From a virus (Duplodnaviria > Caudoviricetes), in IMG/VR virus record IMGVR_UViG_3300035208_003131, positions 20,210-84,209 of that record: DNA of 64,000 nucleotides; one strand, given 5' to 3'. The notes below the pieces were generated by a model that saw nothing but the letters and a program-made list of their open reading frames with translations, was not told the origin of the DNA and searched no databases. Numbering within the stretch: the first letter of the stretch is position 1; each line of letters opens with the position of its first letter. This document shows, in pieces, positions 12,879 through 64,000 of this stretch. Made by a program: the position numbers and the translations under genes.

Positions 12879-12887
12879 TATAAACTA
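12879..12887 (+). promoter_or_regulatory. Late promoter TATAAACTA
   Basis: Exact motif ending 6 nt before the ATG of ORF 12893. Confidence 0.65.
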
Positions 12888-12892
12888 TTACC

Positions 12893-13285
12893 ATGAACAA
12901 ATTTATTACATTTATAGAAAGTTTACGTAATTCGTCAAACGATGAATTAATCAATATAATTAAAGAAGGTTATCATATTATATATGAATCTTTAAGCACA
13001 GACGACGCAAATGGAAAACCAAATGGTAATACCGTTTCAGATCCAAGCGTTGCAAGTGTTGTTGACTATCAACAAAATGATAATAATGAATATTTCCCAC
13101 AAACACTAACCGATACCAAACTAGATAAAGTATCTAAATCATACATCGGTAGTAGAGTAGCTGCATACCCACAAGCTGCACGTACATCTGTGGGTAAAGA
13201 CCCCATAAATAAATTCCAATCTACACCAAATGTAAATGGTGTAGGTGGAGAATATGCAGGTGGTGGATCAGGTGGACTTAAATAA
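12893..13285 (+). CDS. Late hypothetical protein carrying the shared N-terminal helical module (candidate internal head protein)
   Basis: Starts MNKFITFIESLRNSSNDELINIIKEGYHIIYES; late promoter upstream. Confidence 0.6.
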   Translation: MNKFITFIESLRNSSNDELINIIKEGYHIIYESLSTDDANGKPNGNTVSDPSVASVVDYQQNDNNEYFPQTLTDTKLDKVSKSYIGSRVAAYPQAARTSVGKDPINKFQSTPNVNGVGGEYAGGGSGGLK

Positions 13286-16282: not shown

Positions 16283-17080
16283 TTATATCAATGGTTTAAT
16301 TGATACCGCATATGCTTCAAGTACACCTTGAATATATTTAGAATTTTCATCATTCTTAATAGATTCTACAAATGCTTCAAACTTATCAGCGTTTTCTTTT
16401 AAAACTGCTTTTGCTTCAGCTTCTGGTTGAGTTTTAGCAACTTCCTCAAATTTCTTATTACCGTCAGCACCCTTTTGCATATCTTTCATAGAACTATCAG
16501 CTTGTTTTTCAACAGTATCATCAGCTTTATGTTCAGTTACACTGTGTTCAGTATTAGTATTTGCTTTATCAAGCTCTTTACTTTCCTTAGAACCAGTTTT
16601 GGCTGTAACGAAATCAGTTTGTTTAACTGCGTCTGCTTTCAAGAATTTTTCTGCACTGTCAACTCCACCCGATGGGTTAGCCGCATTAGCTTCATTGATG
16701 TTTTTCATTTTTTCTTCCTTTTTTATATTAGATTCAACTGTTTTACGTTTATTAGCGATATAAGCATCTTGATCATCGATGTTACCATCATTATTGATGT
16801 CTTCATCTTCTTTATCAACTTTATCCAATTTAGGTTCCGCTGATTCGGTAATACCAAATACTCCATTAACGCTTCGTTCAAGATCCGCAAAGTCTAGACG
16901 ATCATTTACATCATTACCTCTGCTTAGTATACCTTCAATTTCAGCACGAGTGTCATTAATTACGCCCTCGTTAATACTTTGTGTTACTGCGTTATACGCA
17001 GAATCGTCCATTGTTCCTTCTGTGATTCTATCGAACACATTGGCATCTCTCATTAATTTATCGAGGTCAAGCATATCCAT
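16283..17080 (-). CDS. Late protein, candidate prohead core/internal protein with an EF-hand-like loop
   Basis: Many (I/L/V)xE motifs, an EDINNDGNIDDQDAY loop and the shared helical module at the C-terminus; late promoter upstream. Confidence 0.55.
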   Translation of the reverse strand: MDMLDLDKLMRDANVFDRITEGTMDDSAYNAVTQSINEGVINDTRAEIEGILSRGNDVNDRLDFADLERSVNGVFGITESAEPKLDKVDKEDEDINNDGNIDDQDAYIANKRKTVESNIKKEEKMKNINEANAANPSGGVDSAEKFLKADAVKQTDFVTAKTGSKESKELDKANTNTEHSVTEHKADDTVEKQADSSMKDMQKGADGNKKFEEVAKTQPEAEAKAVLKENADKFEAFVESIKNDENSKYIQGVLEAYAVSIKPLI

Positions 17081-22265: not shown

Positions 22266-22856
22266 CTATTTATTATACTTTGCTTTATTTTTTACTTCAT
22301 TTATCAATTCACGAACACCAGTAATATCATATTCAGATATAAATGCAGATATACCAGAAATTAAATTAGTTAATTCATCATCAGGTAAGTTTTTAAATAA
22401 TTGTTTAAGAACAGTTAAAAATTTAGATTTGTCTTTAATAGTAATTTCAGTTGCAAGTTGTGGTACTTTACGAGACCCATCCATTGCACTCTTTAATTCA
22501 TCACCACTTACATCATCAAGCCCAAGAGCCGAATTAATATGAGGAATTGTATCAACTGAATTAGACATAGAATCAGCTTCATTAATTTTTTTTAACTGTG
22601 ATGTTAATAATTTATCAATCATACCGATATTACTATTAATTTGATTGATATCATAAGTACGATCAACACTTTCATTCATAGAAACTTGATGATCCCCATA
22701 AGTATATAAATCGTTTACAGCACGATTGTACATTCCAATTCCATCATCGATAGGAGCATTTACATTATTTCCTAAATGAGTAGACATTTCACCTTGAGTA
22801 TTGTCTTCAATACCTAGACTTAGATCTTTAAGATCTTCAAATCCATTAATATTCAT
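22266..22856 (-). CDS. Late hypothetical protein with the shared helical module near its C-terminus
   Basis: MNES, INEA and INEV motifs, plus KSKFLTVLKQLFKNLPDDELTNLISG; late promoter at 22880-22888. Confidence 0.55.
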   Translation of the reverse strand: MNINGFEDLKDLSLGIEDNTQGEMSTHLGNNVNAPIDDGIGMYNRAVNDLYTYGDHQVSMNESVDRTYDINQINSNIGMIDKLLTSQLKKINEADSMSNSVDTIPHINSALGLDDVSGDELKSAMDGSRKVPQLATEITIKDKSKFLTVLKQLFKNLPDDELTNLISGISAFISEYDITGVRELINEVKNKAKYNK

Positions 22857-42454: not shown

Positions 42455-42898
42455 ATGATAGAACATTTTTCATCCGATTTAACTCGTTGGTTAAGTAATT
42501 TTTACCCATGTGATATCACATTTGAAGGTAAAACTTATACATCCATCGAACATGCTTACATGTCTGCAAAATCACTCGATCCAAATTGGAAACAATTCTG
42601 TATTGAAACTGAAGATCCAAGAGCGGTAAAAAAACGTTCTCGTGAAATCAAACTAATACCTGAATGGGAAAACATAAAAGTAGATGTTATGAGAGAGTGT
42701 GTAACTCAGAAATTCTCAAAAGAACCATTCCGTAGTAAATTATTAGATACAAAAAATGAATACATTCAAGAAGGTAACTGGTGGAACGACCGATTCTGGG
42801 GAGTTGATTTAAAATCAAATCCACCAGTCGGTAAAAATATGTTAGGTATTCTAATTATGGAAGTTAGATCTAATTTAATTACGGATGAAATATTATAA
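42455..42898 (+). CDS. NADAR family (YbiA-like) N-glycosidase / ADP-ribose eraser
   Basis: LSNFYPC, YTSIEHAYMSAK, QKF, LLDT, EGNWWNDRFWG and GKNMLGILIMEVR. Confidence 0.93.
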   Translation: MIEHFSSDLTRWLSNFYPCDITFEGKTYTSIEHAYMSAKSLDPNWKQFCIETEDPRAVKKRSREIKLIPEWENIKVDVMRECVTQKFSKEPFRSKLLDTKNEYIQEGNWWNDRFWGVDLKSNPPVGKNMLGILIMEVRSNLITDEIL

Positions 42899-56238: not shown

Positions 56239-59200
56239 GTGAATACAGATTTCAATTATTACGACTTTTTGAAGAAAAAAGAATTTAAGTACGATGTAAA
56301 GGTAGATTTGAGTGGTATTAACCTTCAAGGTGATGCTACGACTACAGAAGTAGATCCTGATACAGGTGAAGCATCTGAAGTTAACCTTAACGAGACAGTT
56401 GATGAAAACGTAAATTATGTGTATAATTTGTATCCGAATCGGAGTATAACATACCCAACTACTGAAGAAAATGCAAATGGGGTTGAAGTATCCACTACTA
56501 TAACTCGATATGATGGACAAGATGTTGTAGAGGTTGAAAATATAGATTTTGATACCTCCGATAATCCGGTATCAATTACTGTTGGTACTGATAATACTGT
56601 AATCCCAATTGTTCCTAGACATACTCTTATGCAGGATCGTATAATTGAAGATAATATTATTATATCAACCGCAATTTTCGGTGAGTTAGAAGATTCACTT
56701 GGTAGTGATTTTAATGGTATTAATATATTAAACATTACAACGGAAACCCCATTATATGGATTTAATATACCTTTCACTGATGAGCGGGTATATCAAGCTA
56801 ACATTAATGAGACTGGATTTATAGGTTATGACCGTGTATATGTAACTATTGAAGGTGCTGACACTGAAAGTATGAATGGTGAGTTTGAGGTATCAGTAAT
56901 AGCAAGTGGAAATAATGCGTTATTTAATATTAGACTAAATGATAATACTATTACTGAAAGTCCAATTGGTAATTTAGGGTCAATTACACAGATTAGAATT
57001 AATTATGGTGGGTATGCAAAGCGAACTGCGTTGATTGATCGTGATGTGTATGCTGCACTTGGATTATGGGATACTAATAATCTTAATGTTAATCAGGGAA
57101 TGGATATTAGTGATAGGCATGCTGCTGGATTTTTAAGTAAGAAAAATTTTTATAGTCGATTAGGTGCTTTAAGTGAAAAGGTAACACCGTTAGGTATTGA
57201 AGTAATAACTAATGAATATAGACGATATGAAGTTGAAATTGATGATACTGATACTTCGGTTGATATAAATGTATCACATTTACCATATAATCGAAATTTC
57301 AGATTTGATACATCTATTACTGCTGGAAATACGTTTATTAATCGAAAAAATATTAATGGTGAATTACTGCCGTTATCGTCCGATGATATTACTCCATTTA
57401 CATTGTCAGTTAAAGATGCGTTTACCGCACAGTTTGCAACTGCTGAAGAATTGAATGCTGAATTTATTGGTAGACTTACATCATTGATTGATGCAATGAA
57501 ATCAAATCCAATTATTTATGCTGCTGTTGATCTAGATAGATTTACAGGTACTGATCCAAGTGCGGAACCGGCTCCTGTGTTAATTAAAAAATATGATCCA
57601 ATTACACCATTAGATTATGGTGGGTTGATTGAATATGCTGAGAATGTGTTGAATATTAATGTAGAAATTGATGGTATCAATGCTGTGGCAGGTGAACTTC
57701 CTGAGGAAAATGCTGATATCGGAGAACTTCAATATAGTGGGATATATACTGCGTCTGAGGATAGTATACGTATAGTTAAGACTGAAAATGTTTTTGGTCA
57801 TAAAACATATGAGCTAGATCCCAATCCACAAAGTGAAGAAAGATATATACGAACTGGATATCGAATATATGAAACTTATAATGATACAACTGAAGATGGT
57901 GAGAATATTGTTAGGTTTATGTATGAGAAAGGTGATCCTACTGGTAATAAAATTATTAAACATACGATCGAATATAATGATTCGGTTGATATATCTGAAA
58001 CACTTGAGTTGGTTGATGGTCTCGAAGATATGATGGGTAATATCAGGGCCGTTGCTGCATTAACTGCTGTTACTGGTGGTGCGTCGGTAGCTGCTCTTGT
58101 GATGACTACTCTTAGAACAATTGAACGTAGGTTTGATGATCTCGATTATACAATTAAGCGTATTCGATGGTTCCAGAAATATACAAATCAATCTGTATTT
58201 GATAATGGTGGGTTTATTTCGGAAAATAGATTAGGTATTGCTGATTTTAATTATAATAGACAAATGAGTCGTATACTAATTCCTGTTGATTTTGGGACTA
58301 AGAAAGTCAAATACAAAAAAAAGAATTTTTTTGGATTTAAATACAATGCATATAAACGAATAGATCTTGGTATTCGTTGGGTAGAATTATCATTCATTGA
58401 TACAAGTACATTTTCAAAATATAGAAAAAATGAAGTATCTACGGGTAAGTCATTTACGTTAAATATTCCATTTACATCAATTGATGTATTACCAACTGGT
58501 GATACTGTTCGTGGTACATTATTGAATGTGTTACCTGATGATATAATGGATCGTGATCAAACTACTGTTAATATAACAATTAGTGATCCTAATATTGATG
58601 AGTTTAATGGTGAATTTGTAGCAACTATTATAGATGATTCGACTATTGAATTTGTAGTTGTAACTAATGTAACGTCAAGTAGTGGTGTTACTTTAGTGTC
58701 ATTACTTGCACCATTAATGCCAACCGAACCAGAAAATGATCCAGAAAATATTCGTGTGACATATAATATGCCACATTTGCCATTTGATGATGAATTGCGT
58801 GATAAGATATTTAATGATTTTGGTCCATTTGATCAATCAGCATATTCAAATAAAAGTCGTGGTGGTGATTATACTGTTAGTGATACAGGTGAGATCATTA
58901 ATGATGATGATATTCCAGGTTGGGAAATATTTAAAGATTCAAGTAAAGAAATTAGTGCTATGCGTGAAGGTATAGATATATACAATAAGACTGAATTTTT
59001 ATTTAAGATTTTACAAGATGAATTTGGTCGAAGCCGAGTTAATATAATTGAAACTAGTCGATCATTTCAAGATCAAGAGTATCTACAATTAGGTGGAAGT
59101 GTAAGTAGTTTTTTATCATGGCATAATTATGGACTTGCAATTAAGATTGTAATAACTCAAGAAGATGGTATTACACCAATTAAAGATGGAACCGCTGATC

Positions 59201-60630
59201 AAATGCGTTTACTTAATGTAGCTGAAGGGTTTTGTGAAGGTGCTAAAAATGGTGCATTTGGAAATCCTATGAATGTTGTGTGGTGTGGTCAATTGGTTAC
59301 AGGCCCAGATTTATTTGGTTGGGAATTTCTACCAATCGGAGTTGATCATAAAGATGCACTTAAATTTCGTGATTCTATATATCAACAGAAGGATCCGGTG
59401 GTTGATAATTCATATGTTAATGTAACTGCTAATAATTATATTATTGAATCCGGTGCTGAGGTACCTGATGATAATAGTCCGTATATTTTAGCTAGTAGTA
59501 AAGGAATTACTGATGGTATTAAAATCAATGATGAGTATTGGGTACATCCTAAATATATTATCAATTATACAATTCCGAGTGAATTGATATTAAAAGATGT
59601 TCAAGAATTTTTATTGCTTGTTAAAGGTAAGATGAATGCAAATGGAACGTCGTTAATTGGGCGAAAGAAAATTTCTGAATGGAAATCTAAAAACCCTAGA
59701 TCATTTACACAGTTAGTATTATTCTATGGATTAACTGGTTCATTATCAACTACTCGTAAATTGTTATCTGGTGATTATATTGAAAAATTTCAGAATATGG
59801 TTAATACATTATCTGAGAAAGATCCGGTTAGATTTGTAAAGCGTTATTTAGGTGATGATCAATATGCAAATATCAAGATTTATTTAGAACAGTTATCGGA
59901 TAGTTCATATATTAATTTAAGTGATGGTACAATGACAACTCCTGTACTTGAAGCACGCTCAAGTCATCCAGAGGGTAGTGGTAATACATTTGGTCAAAAA
60001 CAAGTTGATTATAATTCAGTTGAATTTGGTCAATTTCAGAATGGTGTATTTATCCCTGAGGGGGATGATAGAATTATTGAACTTAAAACAACTGAACCTG
60101 TAATCGATGGTTATGTCGATGGAGTTGCATATGAAAGTGATGCGGTTTTGTTACATACATTAATTGCAAATCAGATTGTAGATGAGTTTGATTCAATCAA
60201 AGAAGCGTTTAATACATTATCAATTAAATTCATGCATGATAAGTTTTTTGAGGGTTCTAATAGTTCATTTGCGAATTTACTTGAAAATGAATTTGGTGTA
60301 ATAAGTACACAAGATGTTATGACATTTGATGCGTTGCGTAAGATGTATAATAGAATTGCTATTAACAGTAAAAAAACTGATAATGATGGTGGTGTCAGAG
60401 GTGCTGGTGCAAATATTGAAGCTCAGAATGAAACTGATGATATTGATAGAAATAAAATACAATCTGTATTTGAAAAGCTTGTATCAAACTCTCAGCTTAC
60501 TGGTATAAAACGTGCTAGTTTAACTAAAGAGAAGCCGCTTATTGAACCATTAGCCAATGAAATTAAAGTTGAAGATGTAATTGAAGACATCCAGAATCGA
60601 AGAATTCCAAAAGTATGTGATATATTATAA
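56239..60630 (+). CDS. Large virion structural protein (baseplate/hub candidate) with a degenerate M15 peptidase-like domain
   Basis: GTG start, late promoter and beta-rich segments; IIETSRSFQDQ...SWHNYGLAIKI...WCG...PDLFGWEF at about 59040-59330. Confidence 0.6.
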   Translation: MNTDFNYYDFLKKKEFKYDVKVDLSGINLQGDATTTEVDPDTGEASEVNLNETVDENVNYVYNLYPNRSITYPTTEENANGVEVSTTITRYDGQDVVEVENIDFDTSDNPVSITVGTDNTVIPIVPRHTLMQDRIIEDNIIISTAIFGELEDSLGSDFNGINILNITTETPLYGFNIPFTDERVYQANINETGFIGYDRVYVTIEGADTESMNGEFEVSVIASGNNALFNIRLNDNTITESPIGNLGSITQIRINYGGYAKRTALIDRDVYAALGLWDTNNLNVNQGMDISDRHAAGFLSKKNFYSRLGALSEKVTPLGIEVITNEYRRYEVEIDDTDTSVDINVSHLPYNRNFRFDTSITAGNTFINRKNINGELLPLSSDDITPFTLSVKDAFTAQFATAEELNAEFIGRLTSLIDAMKSNPIIYAAVDLDRFTGTDPSAEPAPVLIKKYDPITPLDYGGLIEYAENVLNINVEIDGINAVAGELPEENADIGELQYSGIYTASEDSIRIVKTENVFGHKTYELDPNPQSEERYIRTGYRIYETYNDTTEDGENIVRFMYEKGDPTGNKIIKHTIEYNDSVDISETLELVDGLEDMMGNIRAVAALTAVTGGASVAALVMTTLRTIERRFDDLDYTIKRIRWFQKYTNQSVFDNGGFISENRLGIADFNYNRQMSRILIPVDFGTKKVKYKKKNFFGFKYNAYKRIDLGIRWVELSFIDTSTFSKYRKNEVSTGKSFTLNIPFTSIDVLPTGDTVRGTLLNVLPDDIMDRDQTTVNITISDPNIDEFNGEFVATIIDDSTIEFVVVTNVTSSSGVTLVSLLAPLMPTEPENDPENIRVTYNMPHLPFDDELRDKIFNDFGPFDQSAYSNKSRGGDYTVSDTGEIINDDDIPGWEIFKDSSKEISAMREGIDIYNKTEFLFKILQDEFGRSRVNIIETSRSFQDQEYLQLGGSVSSFLSWHNYGLAIKIVITQEDGITPIKDGTADQMRLLNVAEGFCEGAKNGAFGNPMNVVWCGQLVTGPDLFGWEFLPIGVDHKDALKFRDSIYQQKDPVVDNSYVNVTANNYIIESGAEVPDDNSPYILASSKGITDGIKINDEYWVHPKYIINYTIPSELILKDVQEFLLLVKGKMNANGTSLIGRKKISEWKSKNPRSFTQLVLFYGLTGSLSTTRKLLSGDYIEKFQNMVNTLSEKDPVRFVKRYLGDDQYANIKIYLEQLSDSSYINLSDGTMTTPVLEARSSHPEGSGNTFGQKQVDYNSVEFGQFQNGVFIPEGDDRIIELKTTEPVIDGYVDGVAYESDAVLLHTLIANQIVDEFDSIKEAFNTLSIKFMHDKFFEGSNSSFANLLENEFGVISTQDVMTFDALRKMYNRIAINSKKTDNDGGVRGAGANIEAQNETDDIDRNKIQSVFEKLVSNSQLTGIKRASLTKEKPLIEPLANEIKVEDVIEDIQNRRIPKVCDIL

Positions 60631-60659
60631 ACTAAGTGTAAACACATAAAGGCGGTAAC

Positions 60660-61406
60660 ATGAGTACTGGAATATATACAACACGAGACGATTTAGTTGA
60701 GTACGTGAAAGCAAGACTGGGTCATCCAGTAATAGAATTGGAATTAGAATTAGCGGAAAAAGATGGTCTTGGCCATGTCCATATGGCAATAAATGATACA
60801 CTTGATTGGTTTTTTCGTTATAATCAAGATGAGGCTAATTATCATGACTGGATGGTTCTTTATTTAAAAGCTGGTATTATTGAATATGATACACCTGAAG
60901 AGGTAAGTGATGTTATTGATGTAGCACCTTCGTTTGGTAATGGGTTTACACCTTGGACTGCATTTGATGTTGGTGCTGGTGAGTCGCTAGTTGCAACAAC
61001 GGGTTGGTCTCAATTTGATTTGGTTACTTATACTGCTGCACAGCGTTACATTGCTGATGTTAAGAAATTAGTTGGTACTCAATATCAAGTACGTTTTCAT
61101 CCTTTTCAACATAAACTTCGTATTTTTCCAACACCTCGTACCGATCGTGTAGCTATATGTCGTATTTATCGCAAGGCTGTTATCGGTGAAGTATTTGCAA
61201 ATATTTCATTTCGTGATCTTGTTGTTGCTCGTACTAAAATTTTATGGGGTGAAATCTTAGATAGAGATGATTATACACTTCCTGGTGGTGGTAAAGTTAA
61301 TGGTGCTAGACTGCTAGAACAAGCTCGTGCTGATTTAGTTAAATATGAAGAAAAAATATGGGATGAAAGTGCAAAAGCATTTATTTTAACTGATTTGGAT
61401 ATGTAA
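60660..61406 (+). CDS. gp13: Neck / head-completion protein (T4 gp13-like)
   Basis: LVEYVKARLGHPVIELEL...INDTLDWFFRY and TKILWGEIL...LPGGGKVNG..L. Confidence 0.85.
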   Translation: MSTGIYTTRDDLVEYVKARLGHPVIELELELAEKDGLGHVHMAINDTLDWFFRYNQDEANYHDWMVLYLKAGIIEYDTPEEVSDVIDVAPSFGNGFTPWTAFDVGAGESLVATTGWSQFDLVTYTAAQRYIADVKKLVGTQYQVRFHPFQHKLRIFPTPRTDRVAICRIYRKAVIGEVFANISFRDLVVARTKILWGEILDRDDYTLPGGGKVNGARLLEQARADLVKYEEKIWDESAKAFILTDLDM

Positions 61407-61415
61407 GTAATTAAT

Positions 61416-62735
61416 ATGGCAGCAGAATTTGAAATTTATAAATATACAGGTAAAGAATGTGAATTTGGTACACCTGTATCAAGTATTGGTATAAAGAGAA
61501 TTGATGCGGCGGTTCCTGCGGTATACGGCATTCCTATTGTACCAGCTGATGATGTAACTGATGTAAATACATATGCAATTTATCGTCCCGATGTGGCAAG
61601 TGATGATGGGTATTCATTTGAATCTATTTTTAAGTTTATTCTTAAGACACCTCCATCGAACCAGTTAAGTCATATGCGAATTTATCCAGCGACTGAACGA
61701 CCAGATGATCCACATATTCCAATTTTAAAAATTGGATGTTCTCGTTCATTTTCTCGTCCAACTAATACAATGTCGTTGGTAGCAACTCATGATATTTGGG
61801 ATTATACTGAAGAAAGTCCATTCCTTGTAACAGTTGGTAGTAATTATGGTCAATCGGTCGATGAACAAGTTGCTGTAATTAATTATAATATAACTCAACA
61901 TGATATTGGGTTTGGTAACTTGATGTATTTAAATGACGAGCGTCAATTAAGTGTACCTATTGTTATGGGTAGTGGTCCATATACCTTTGTTGATAAAACA
62001 AGTGATGGAATGACATTCCAAATATATGATGTTAATACTAGTTTACCAATCACAGATTCAGCTATAGTAGTTAGTACTAATGGTGCTGGTGAGCGTGTAG
62101 TTACTATTAATCCAACTAATGCATTATTAACATCGTATCCAAATGGGTTTTTGTATGGTGATATAGCTGATGTTAATCTTGGTGGTACTATTGGTTGGTT
62201 AGATCTTACATCAGATCCAATAGAAACTGAGGTATACGATGTAACTGTGGAAAATCTACCTAATGGAAGTAAAGCATTTTTTTTAAATGGTGTGCGTAAT
62301 CCTGTACTTAATTTCAGAGAAAATCGAATATATCAATTTAATAATCCTTATGGTGCAACCGATCCAATTCGGTTTTTAACTGATGCTGCATTAACTCAAG
62401 CTAATGTTGAAGATAAGATTATTATTAAAGGTATTACTGTAACTGATGGTGGTACTGCAAATGAAGTAGTGGTAGTTAATCCATCGGATATTAAGACAGC
62501 TGGTCAATTAGTTAGAGGATATCAATCTACATTTCATTCATGTTATGGAAATATAGTCAATAATACAAATACTGCATTGATTGGTAATTATAATATTAAT
62601 ACTGTTGGTGCTGGTGTAAGTAATCCATTAGCTGCTGGCGAAACTGATTTTATTTATTTACAGCTTAAGGTTACAGGTAATTCCACTGTGGGTCAAACTA
62701 TACCTGAATTAAAAATAGAATATGATGAGAACTAA
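61416..62735 (+). CDS. Virion structural protein, beta-rich, with internal cupredoxin-like inserts
   Basis: YSFESIFKF..PPSNQLSH at the N-terminus, GETDFIYLQLKV...IEYDE at the C-terminus, and the insert FFLNGVRNPVLNFRENRIYQF. Confidence 0.6.
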   Translation: MAAEFEIYKYTGKECEFGTPVSSIGIKRIDAAVPAVYGIPIVPADDVTDVNTYAIYRPDVASDDGYSFESIFKFILKTPPSNQLSHMRIYPATERPDDPHIPILKIGCSRSFSRPTNTMSLVATHDIWDYTEESPFLVTVGSNYGQSVDEQVAVINYNITQHDIGFGNLMYLNDERQLSVPIVMGSGPYTFVDKTSDGMTFQIYDVNTSLPITDSAIVVSTNGAGERVVTINPTNALLTSYPNGFLYGDIADVNLGGTIGWLDLTSDPIETEVYDVTVENLPNGSKAFFLNGVRNPVLNFRENRIYQFNNPYGATDPIRFLTDAALTQANVEDKIIIKGITVTDGGTANEVVVVNPSDIKTAGQLVRGYQSTFHSCYGNIVNNTNTALIGNYNINTVGAGVSNPLAAGETDFIYLQLKVTGNSTVGQTIPELKIEYDEN

Positions 62736-62737
62736 AT

Positions 62738-63835
62738 ATGAAATTATATCACGGTAGTGGAAAAAAATTTGAAAATTTCTCTAATGAGTATGTGAATACT
62801 GGGGAAGAAGTCCAGAAGTATGGTTATGGTATCTATCTCACTAATAGTATTGAGATAGCAAAATATTATGCTGATCGAGCCGCTGGTGTGGGTTATGTAT
62901 ATGCGGTTCAAATACCTAACTCATTAAATGTAGTTGATTGGAATGAAAGTATTGATACATATACTGTATCTGAGATGGCTAAACAGCTCATAGGAGCGGA
63001 AGTTTTTGATGCTGAAATTGATGAGATGGGAGAACATAGAACATTCTTTTTTCAAGACGATAAATTTGAAGAAATAATTGAAACTATTCTTGTTGATGGT
63101 GCTAATATAGAAGCATGGGAAAATTTACAAGAAGAGGTGGAAGATTATGATTTAAGTAATTTTAAATCTCTTATCAATAAATCTGCATTTGAGTTTTATC
63201 TTGATGATGGTATATCATATGAGACTGTTTATGATTTTATTTCAAGTACTCTTGGTGGAGTTACTGCAAGTAAGTTAATGATTAAGAATGGTGTTGATGG
63301 ATTTAAGTTTAATGCAACTGAAGTTAATGGTGGAATTAATTATACAATATTTAATTCAAGTAATATTAAGATTATTAATATGCAATTAGAAAATGATGTC
63401 GGGTTGAATGAGAGTGTTATTCAGTTGAAGGGATTTATTAAATCGCATTTACGTGATGATAATAAGAGTTTAGTTGAAAGTATAATGAAAGGATATGTTA
63501 GTATATTCGAATCTGTTCGTGATGGATTATATTATCATGTAAGTAATGATAAATTTACTAATTTTAATGATTCTGATGGTGGTATTTGGTTTACGTTAAA
63601 TAAAGCAAGTGCTATTAATGGTGAGGTTGGTGCTAGTGGTAATTCTGTATTATATACGGTAAAGTTAAATGTACATAATTTAGCTGGTTGGGATGAATAT
63701 GATAATATGGATTTTTATGAACTAAAACATGCTGGGTTTGACGGGGTTAAATTAGATGATGACCTTGTTGTATTTGATGATAGTCAAATTAATATTATAT
63801 CAGTAGATGAAATTAAAGGGTATAAGGATATATAA
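62738..63835 (+). CDS. Tandem ADP-ribosyltransferase-like (ART-PolyVal-type) two-domain protein
   Basis: Domain 1: LYHGS...YGYGIYLT..IAKYYA...GVDG...YTIFNSSNIKII. Domain 2: YYHVS..F..F...GGIWFT...LYTVKL...GFDGV...VVFDDSQINII. The linker contains the shared helical module. Confidence 0.7.
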   Translation: MKLYHGSGKKFENFSNEYVNTGEEVQKYGYGIYLTNSIEIAKYYADRAAGVGYVYAVQIPNSLNVVDWNESIDTYTVSEMAKQLIGAEVFDAEIDEMGEHRTFFFQDDKFEEIIETILVDGANIEAWENLQEEVEDYDLSNFKSLINKSAFEFYLDDGISYETVYDFISSTLGGVTASKLMIKNGVDGFKFNATEVNGGINYTIFNSSNIKIINMQLENDVGLNESVIQLKGFIKSHLRDDNKSLVESIMKGYVSIFESVRDGLYYHVSNDKFTNFNDSDGGIWFTLNKASAINGEVGASGNSVLYTVKLNVHNLAGWDEYDNMDFYELKHAGFDGVKLDDDLVVFDDSQINIISVDEIKGYKDI

Positions 63836-64000
63836 TGAAATATAATGCGTATCATGGACGAACGGTAAATAGTAGTGAATTTAGTTTAAAATATGTTGGG
63901 CGTGATGAAGCGATTGATCAATTTGGTCCAGGATTTTATTTTACTGATGTTGAGCATGTTGCGGTTGGATATGCTGGTAGTGATGGAATTGTAATTAATG
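63835..64000 (+). CDS. Third ART-like protein, N-terminal part (runs off the window edge)
   Basis: Translated manually from the TAATG overlap: MKYNAYHGRTVNSSEFSLKYVGRDEAIDQFGPGFYFTDVEHVAVGYAGSDGIVIN, with YHG and GPGFYFT motifs. Confidence 0.72.
   Translation, partial: MKYNAYHGRTVNSSEFSLKYVGRDEAIDQFGPGFYFTDVEHVAVGYAGSDGIVIN

Follow-up and report, generated by a model that had tools for sequence, protein, structure and literature searches.

A small two-domain ADP-ribosyltransferase-like protein with a portable linker module, a candidate packaged effector of a giant, distantly T4-like phage

The window analysed here, a stretch of 64,000 nucleotides, is the final 64 kb of an 84,209-bp IMG/VR viral contig (G000; CheckV completeness ~20%). 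Close to its end, a plus-strand gene at 62738-63835 encodes a protein of 365 amino acids (aa) in which two ADP-ribosyltransferase (ART) domains of the ART-PolyVal type, D1 and D2, are joined by a helical module of ~33 residues, and the next gene opens with a third domain of this kind, D3. We read the product of 62738-63835 as a small effector of the polyvalent kind, encoded by a giant phage distantly related to T4; it would be loaded into the capsid, cleaved there and injected into the host. This reading is somewhat probable rather than firm, because each of its functional steps, namely packaging, cleavage, ejection, catalysis and the choice of targets, is one that we infer. The gene, its parts and the open reading frame (ORF) that follows it are listed below, with ↓ marking candidate cleavage points; the last ORF is truncated because the end of the window is also the end of the contig.

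62738-63835, plus strand: ART gene, an ORF of 365 aa comprising D1, the module and D2
62738-63391, plus strand: ART domain D1, residues 1-218, an ART-PolyVal core with a helical insert of ~100 residues
63404-63412, plus strand: upstream candidate protease site LNE↓S (L-N-E, residues 223-225), with [LIVM]xE-Ser kept in 5 of 6 homologues
63413-63511, plus strand: portable module, residues 226-258, defined by profile matches, with candidate sites LVE247↓S and IFE258↓S
63512-63832, plus strand: ART domain D2, residues 259-365, a compact ART of ~100 residues with H267, W284 and D342
63835-64000, plus strand: ORF3, open at its 3' end and cut by the end of the contig; the 55 codons present encode the first 55 residues of D3 (ART-PolyVal, 22.7 bits, E 1.9e-4)

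D1, D2 and D3 are all ART domains of the ART-PolyVal type. The original prediction, made from the letters of the sequence, had proposed three such domains in a row, two in 62738-63835 and the third from 63835, and the motifs on which it relied are present: YHGS...GIYLT in D1, YHVS...GIWFT in D2 and YHGR...GFYFT in D3. It had also named structure prediction as a check, and for D1 and D2 this returned nothing but ART folds; D3 is assigned by the Pfam profile and by an orthologue scoring 61.1 bits.

D1 matched the Pfam family ART-PolyVal (PF18760) with 32.4 bits (E 1.8e-7, hmmscan), the gathering cut-off of the family being 31.2 bits. Its AlphaFold (AF2) model has a predicted local distance difference test score (pLDDT) of ~85, and the top 50 rows of a VIA-align comparison with this model are all ART folds. 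The best of them is residues 1422-1606 of 9k3a_B (Z 10.2, 158 residues aligned), followed by diphtheria toxin (Z 9.7) and then by PARPs, RES, ParT, MbcT and Arr; Foldseek agrees in finding ART folds. The homologues of D1 are proteins of 451-515 aa with 57-64% identity over this domain.

D2 on its own produced only noise against Pfam (Vgb_lyase, E 0.08), with no match to ART-PolyVal, and a search of PDB sequences with the D2 profile yielded no relative. A phmmer search of 1.8 billion representative sequences identified 602 relatives of D2, many of them within proteins of 1-5 kaa (thousand amino acids), and 26 of 30 short relatives matched ART-PolyVal, with a best E of 7.8e-15. The large relatives combine ART-PolyVal with DUF5661, LPD22 and PBECR5, which is the vocabulary of polyvalent proteins. 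In hhalign, the alignment of D1 matched the D2 family with 94% probability (E 2e-8), and the C-terminal part did so separately (E 1e-7). The AF2 model of D2, built from a 70-sequence alignment (pLDDT ~95), again has 9k3a_B as its best structural match (Z 8.2, root-mean-square deviation 2.6, 100 residues aligned); the top 40-50 rows are ART folds, with PARPs, MbcT, diphtheria toxin, ParT, RES and Arr next.

The fragment of D3 is 36% identical to the N-terminus of D1. Its syntenic orthologue on a related 36-kb contig (L004:10424-11368) matches ART-PolyVal with the 61.1 bits mentioned above and continues with the module and then with a DUF5661 domain (65.4 bits); the gene that starts at 63835 is probably built alike, as ART, module and DUF5661. 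The orthologous gene is intact (314 aa) on the 36-kb contig, and on a related 131-kb contig (L003:11353-12298; G001:C1:117585-118518) it is split by a frameshift or a TAG codon, probably because the assembly or the sequencing is in error or because the gene was broken recently.

The ART-PolyVal family, described as part of phage polyvalent proteins by Iyer, Burroughs, Anand, de Souza and Aravind in 2017, is defined by a His in strand 1, a Tyr in strand 2 and an Asp in strand 5 (PMC5512222). The earlier assignment of the domains to an HYE class is thus right as to the ART fold but not as to the triad, which in this family is H-Y-D. The equivalent positions, derived from profile alignments, are as follows.

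D1: H5, Y33 (with Y44) and N201
D2: H267, W284 and D342
D3 and its orthologue: H, Y and, in the orthologue, Ile

In these alignments N201, at the acid position of D1, falls opposite the Asp of D2. Residues H5, Y33, Y44 and E195 are invariant among the D1 homologues, E195 lying six residues upstream of N201. Y44 follows Y33 by eleven residues, and the same Tyr-X10-Tyr spacing is seen in D3; it is the arrangement of PARP and diphtheria toxin. The strand-1 His and strand-2 Tyr of D3 are present, and its acid position, which would lie beyond the end of the contig, is read from the orthologue. Both D1, with its H-Y-N set and invariant Glu upstream, and D3 may be variant enzymes, or they may be inactive; D1, with its relocated Glu, could be a catalytic ART variant that has so far gone unrecognised.

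Among 160 aligned domains of the D2 subfamily, the His is found in 156 and the Trp in 153, and the acid position is occupied by D in 120, by N in 12 and by T in another 12. None of the subfamily's signature residues is missing from D2, which has D342 and also the GA and W-x-E-Y signatures and is therefore a typical member. Judged by these residues, D2 is the one of the set most likely to be an active enzyme, and it is the only one of the three for which activity may be expected with some confidence. The domains of the proposed 'array' or 'arsenal' are thus real, although 'array' is a large word for two and a half domains, and an arsenal of three active enzymes is not established because Asn in D1 and Ile in the D3 orthologue stand at the acid position.

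Two more specific affiliations were considered. Membership of the T4 Alt/ModA/ModB (R-S-E) clade was rejected: all three domains have as their strand 1 the Y-H-G/V sequence typical of the H-Y-[D/E] clade, and the structural neighbours belong to the PARP, diphtheria toxin, RES and ParT classes instead. The domains may nevertheless work like Alt. A specific relationship to DarT was not adopted: DarT (as 7yk3_C) reaches only Z 4.9 with D1 and is unlisted for D2, and there was no Pfam match to DarT.

The linker between D1 and D2 has exactly the sequence that had been quoted, including three [LI]xE-S sites. By profile comparison it is a real, portable and conserved module of ~33 residues, for which AlphaFold predicts two helices (pLDDT 67-77). 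An iterated profile of the module gave 20 matches over three related contigs and fetched proteins. When the alignment was searched against 5.8 billion proteins, only 28 proteins were found, which suggests that the module is restricted to a narrow clade. In the window, it also forms the beginning of a small protein resembling T4 internal proteins (IP-like).

12893-13285, plus strand: IP-like small protein of 130 aa, the first 33 residues of which are the module (MNKFITF...GYHIIYES↓LSTDDAN)

The N-terminus of this ORF matched the module profile with E 8e-6, and with E 4e-13 after iteration. The claim that the module recurs in several late orphan proteins is borne out here; it finds weak support at the C-terminus of 16283-17080 (E 0.06) and fails for 22266-22856, where there was no module match by profile even at E 10.

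The module occupies either the exact N-terminus of a protein or a position between two domains. It is N-terminal in the IP-like family, with the pattern M(N/D)KFITF...GYxxIYES↓LSTDDAN, in P0056 and in a 239-aa protein encoded beside the ART genes in L003 and L004. In the homologues of D1 the same segment of ~38 residues follows that domain and leads to C-terminal domains that are unrelated to one another, while P0007 consists of a different ART, the module segment and a D2 at 92% identity. Some of these C-terminal parts are also encoded with the module as stand-alone genes: P0167, which has 228 aa and is encoded on a 457-kb contig, consists of the module followed by the cargo X of the 451-aa homologues, and P0014 (136 aa) is the module followed by a D2-type ART. 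These stand-alone genes show that the module belongs together with the cargo downstream of it and, by extension, that D1 and D3, which start directly with strand 1, have been fused upstream of such units. The cargo as a whole comprises unrelated proteins, namely ARTs, cargo X, DUF5661, the 239-aa charged protein and the IP-like family.

The members of the IP-like family (12893-13285 and P0159-P0180) have ~130 aa and combine the module and the invariant LSTDDAN with a low-complexity body rich in Gly and Asn; in this clade, the family seems to correspond to the internal proteins of T4. Cargo X (the C-terminal part of the 451-aa product of L004:9072-10427, and P0167) had no Pfam match. It contains a glycine-rich motif followed by VYK-like and HxLK-like motifs, reminiscent of a small kinase-like fold.

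The end of the module is the sequence (I/L)(F/Y/I)E followed by S, G, N, A or D in all 20 profile matches. A middle site, L-V/I-E-S/A, is common among the modules, and ahead of the internal copies, at a distance of a few residues, there is another [LIVM]xE-S site. The 365-aa protein has three [LI]xE motifs, each followed by Ser, within 38 linker residues, where the background rate in the long ORFs of the contig (1.25 per 100 aa) leads one to expect ~0.5 (Poisson P ~0.01). Cleavage at IFE258↓S would make D2 begin five residues ahead of its strand 1, resembling the N-termini of stand-alone ARTs; if the chain were cut at LNE225↓S, D1 would extend eight residues past its last strand.

A protease that might make such cuts is encoded by the related 36-kb contig (G002), which shares the gene order of the region and has 62% identity in the ART. 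A match to Peptidase_S77 (E 4.2e-25) lies there in a block of portal, protease, scaffold-like and major-head-protein genes, in the T4 order. The predicted protease (L014:8730-9506, minus strand) shares 34% identity with T4 gp21 and has conserved the residues equivalent to His85 and Ser140; the scaffold-like protein beside it is encoded at L014:7868-8716, also on the minus strand. In an alignment of the capsid protein of this contig with T4 gp23, the position of FLTE↓A, which we take to be the maturation site of gp23 at E65, is occupied by FLPE↓S. In T4, gp23 loses a propeptide of 65 residues (PMC9026906). The FLPE↓S of the capsid protein suggests that the L-x-E specificity of the protease has been retained in the clade.

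In the reading that we favour, the module would act as an extended form of the capsid-targeting sequence (CTS) of T4 and bind the scaffolding core. The whole chain would be built into the prohead, with the leaderless upstream D1 riding along. A prohead protease of the gp21 type would then cut after Glu at LNE225↓S and IFE258↓S, and possibly at LVE247↓S, freeing D1 (~25 kDa), D2 (~12 kDa) and a short peptide. At infection, the freed domains would leave the capsid with the DNA and use NAD+ to modify host targets. The narrower proposal contained in this scheme, that the module is an internal capsid-targeting propeptide which pulls a leaderless enzyme into the prohead and is excised on both sides by the head protease, is tentative, and we regard it as possible without calling it probable.

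A number of findings weigh against capsid loading, processing and catalysis as set out here. No homology between the module and the T4 CTS could be demonstrated; the module is three times longer, and the CTS, with only 10 residues, does not allow sequence homology to be assessed statistically. There is no more than a loose M-x-K-F-x-x-F resemblance between the two. The middle LVE site is missing from the IP-like family, and the helices of the D1 insert contain three other [LI]xE motifs, followed by Met, Thr or Glu, so that specificity does not lie in the motif by itself. Neither a Peptidase_S77 protease nor head genes were found in the window's own 84-kb contig, as a consequence of its being a fragment, and Peptidase_S77 was not found in the related contig G001 either. 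By Pfam score, the membership of D1 in the family appears borderline, because in a six-frame search it attained merely 29.7 bits, below the cut-off. The catalytic Asp of the family is replaced in D1 by Asn201, which is invariant in 6 of 6 homologues, and the D3 orthologue has Ile at this position, with a Glu four residues upstream of it. Finally, searches of GenBank phages found neither the module nor D2 in a cultured relative: megablast and tblastn with the region, the 365-aa protein, D2 and the IP-like protein gave nothing useful, the sole match covering 41 residues.

Some of these points would suit a cytoplasmic role, in which the two-domain proteins are late enzymes that stay out of the capsid. 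The module would then be just a conserved helical element, serving as a spacer or for docking to some shared partner (a chaperone, an oligomerisation interface or a host protein), and its Glu residues would be structural. The two predicted helices, the presence of [LI]xE within D1, a middle site that is not universal and the lack of homology to the CTS are all compatible with this. However, a spacer would not be placed at the very start of small proteins that are unrelated to one another, nor would it be expected to end in (I/L)xE and a small residue in 20 of 20 cases. The same cargo also occurs with the module as an N-terminal leader (P0167 and P0014), and the genes are placed between neck and head genes in a clade that has an S77 protease. 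We therefore hold the cytoplasmic role to be unlikely, though worth keeping in mind. It is likewise conceivable, if distinctly improbable in our judgement, that the domains are packaged and processed but largely inactive, being bulk internal proteins or binders of NAD, ADP-ribose (ADPr) or nucleic acid. The Asn of D1 and the Ile of the D3 orthologue point in this direction, as does the Trp of the D2 subfamily at the place of the first Tyr of PARP and diphtheria toxin, and no biochemical characterisation of any ART-PolyVal member was found in the literature searched. Against inactivity stand the complete signature of D2, with an Asp at position 342 that is shared by 120 of 160 domains, and the invariance of H5, Y33, Y44 and E195 among the D1 homologues. 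Moreover, mono-ART activity is established for PARPs whose third position is occupied by Ile, Leu or Tyr.

The original prediction had further suggested that a NADAR protein of the phage erases the modification written by the ARTs.

42455-42898: NADAR domain protein (Pfam, 80.5 bits)

The NADAR is genuine, and in some toxin-antitoxin systems of the DarT-like type the place of Macro is taken by NADAR (PMC9503650), so a writer and eraser acting on the same substrate could be imagined. The gene, however, is 20 kb away in the opposite arm, and no conserved linkage of NADAR and ART genes is seen in L003 or L004. Phage NADARs have been argued to act mostly on soluble ADPr derivatives (Iyer et al. 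2022, PMC9503650), and DarT itself is only a distant structural match of D1 (Z 4.9). The pairing was rejected since there is no evidence of linkage, and we consider it very improbable; of that suggestion, the identity of the NADAR is what remains.

The proposed effector can be compared with several known systems. With the polyvalent proteins it shares the domain family and its partners (ART-PolyVal with DUF5661), the presence of several effector domains per chain, the location of the genes near virion genes and the predicted delivery with the DNA, and relatives of D2 reside within chains of 1-5 kaa. Unlike the polyvalent proteins, which are single giant chains, often with a zincin-like MPTase for self-processing, the proteins described here are short two-domain chains joined by a module that ends in a site of the head-protease type. 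D1 differs further in having Asn at the acid position of H-Y-D and a helical insert of ~100 residues. In T4, IPI-III enter the core by way of an N-terminal CTS of 10 residues, which gp21 removes, and Alt, which is an ART, is trimmed at both ends; redundant cut sites are known from giant-phage propeptides (PMC9026906). The system of IPI, IPII, IPIII, Alt and gp21 is similar in that a short leader ending in (L/I)-x-E is carried by unrelated cargo, one type of which is an ART, in the presence of a gp21-family protease (here in a relative); an IP-like family has the same leader. It is different in that the leader in T4 is confined to 10 N-terminal residues, whereas the module has ~33 residues, is predicted to form two helices and occurs internally as well. 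Alt is an ART of the R-S-E type, and D1-D3 belong to the H-Y-[D/E] clade.

The best structural match of both D1 and D2, residues ~1420-1610 of chain B in the pre-ejectosome of cyanopodophage A4 (9k3a), is part of a protein that is physically inside the capsid (PMC12002296). This is a very large podovirus ejection protein, and there is no match to it at the sequence level. The text of the A4 paper (PMC12002296) contains 'ADP-ribosyl' 0 times and does not discuss an ART domain. Together with the structural match, this silence suggests that the capsid-internal protein of A4 may hold an ART-like domain that has passed unremarked. More distant likeness is seen to ARTs of the H-Y-E type, such as those of PARP and diphtheria toxin, and to small phage ARTs of the AcrIF11 type, with the ART fold, the strand-1 His, a strand 2 like G-I-Y-F and the acid or its substitute just ahead of a strand 5 like Y-I-V-F in common; these are remote matches, with Z 5-10 and 10-17% identity. 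For AcrIF11 the structure concerned is PDB 6kyf, which we take to be that protein.

The present case is set apart by its module, which is long, has two predicted helices, is confined to one clade and occurs at N-termini as well as between domains; by the arrangement of the polyvalent vocabulary (ART-PolyVal and DUF5661) in small cassettes; and by a D1 subfamily whose acid position is invariantly Asn. If the favoured reading is true, it joins polyvalent effectors of the kind described by Aravind with the capsid targeting and gp21 processing of T4, which have hitherto been treated apart. A giant phage would then load several host-modifying enzymes by means of one reusable tag. If, in addition, the more tentative idea of an internal capsid-targeting propeptide is right, a T4-like clade with genomes of ~450 kb would have broken giant polyvalent proteins up into cassettes of tag plus cargo that are ready for shuffling, and the module could serve as a portable tag for loading when the heads of large phages are engineered. 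The gain would be incremental rather than a new principle, because ARTs packaged in the head have already been predicted (PMC5512222, PMC9503650).

The ART gene is part of a late gene string led by a gp13-like gene; it is adjacent to neck and head genes and translationally coupled, the ATG of ORF3 overlapping its stop codon by 1 nt.

60626-60634, plus strand: TATAAACTA box, a candidate late promoter heading the string of the gp13-like, 439-aa, ART and ART3 genes
60660-61406, plus strand: gp13-like head-tail adaptor (neck) gene, with PHROG 211 'head-tail adaptor Ad2' at E 1.8e-13 and T4 gp13 at E 3e-7 by BLASTP
61416-62735, plus strand: 439-aa protein of unassigned function, found at the same place in the related L003 and L004

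The presence of a gp13 gene upstream, as originally proposed, is supported by both matches. The 439-aa protein had no match in Pfam or PHROG, and its identification as gp14 is not supported, as it has no similarity to T4 gp14. The pattern TATAAAYTA occurs 17 times against 8.2 expected, a number reached by 0 of 100 shuffles, and a second TATAAACTA box is located at 12879, 6 nt ahead of the ATG of the IP-like gene 12893-13285; we infer that the box is a late promoter. The arm also encodes a gp55-like late sigma factor, SbcCD-like nucleases, a RuvC-like resolvase and a helicase, and these predicted genes fit a distant phage of the T4 type.

Several other ORFs of the region were noted in passing. 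Between the ART cluster and the head genes, both related contigs have an IS200/IS605-type TnpB-like ORF (L003:19705-20769 and L004:18789-19841), called by eye from its zinc-ribbon and RuvC-like motifs, and an HNH-like ORF of 307 aa is found at L004:14137-15060. Near the head genes, the minus-strand ORF L004:17148-18701 codes for an extremely acidic protein of 517 aa with poly-Glu and AGELDTE repeats, the number of which differs between L003 and L004; it may be a scaffold or an internal protein. Directly upstream of the gp13-like gene, the ORF 56239-60630 encodes a late protein of 1463 aa with no match in Pfam or PHROG, which is conserved in L003, where it is apparently split into ORFs of 967 aa and 511 aa.

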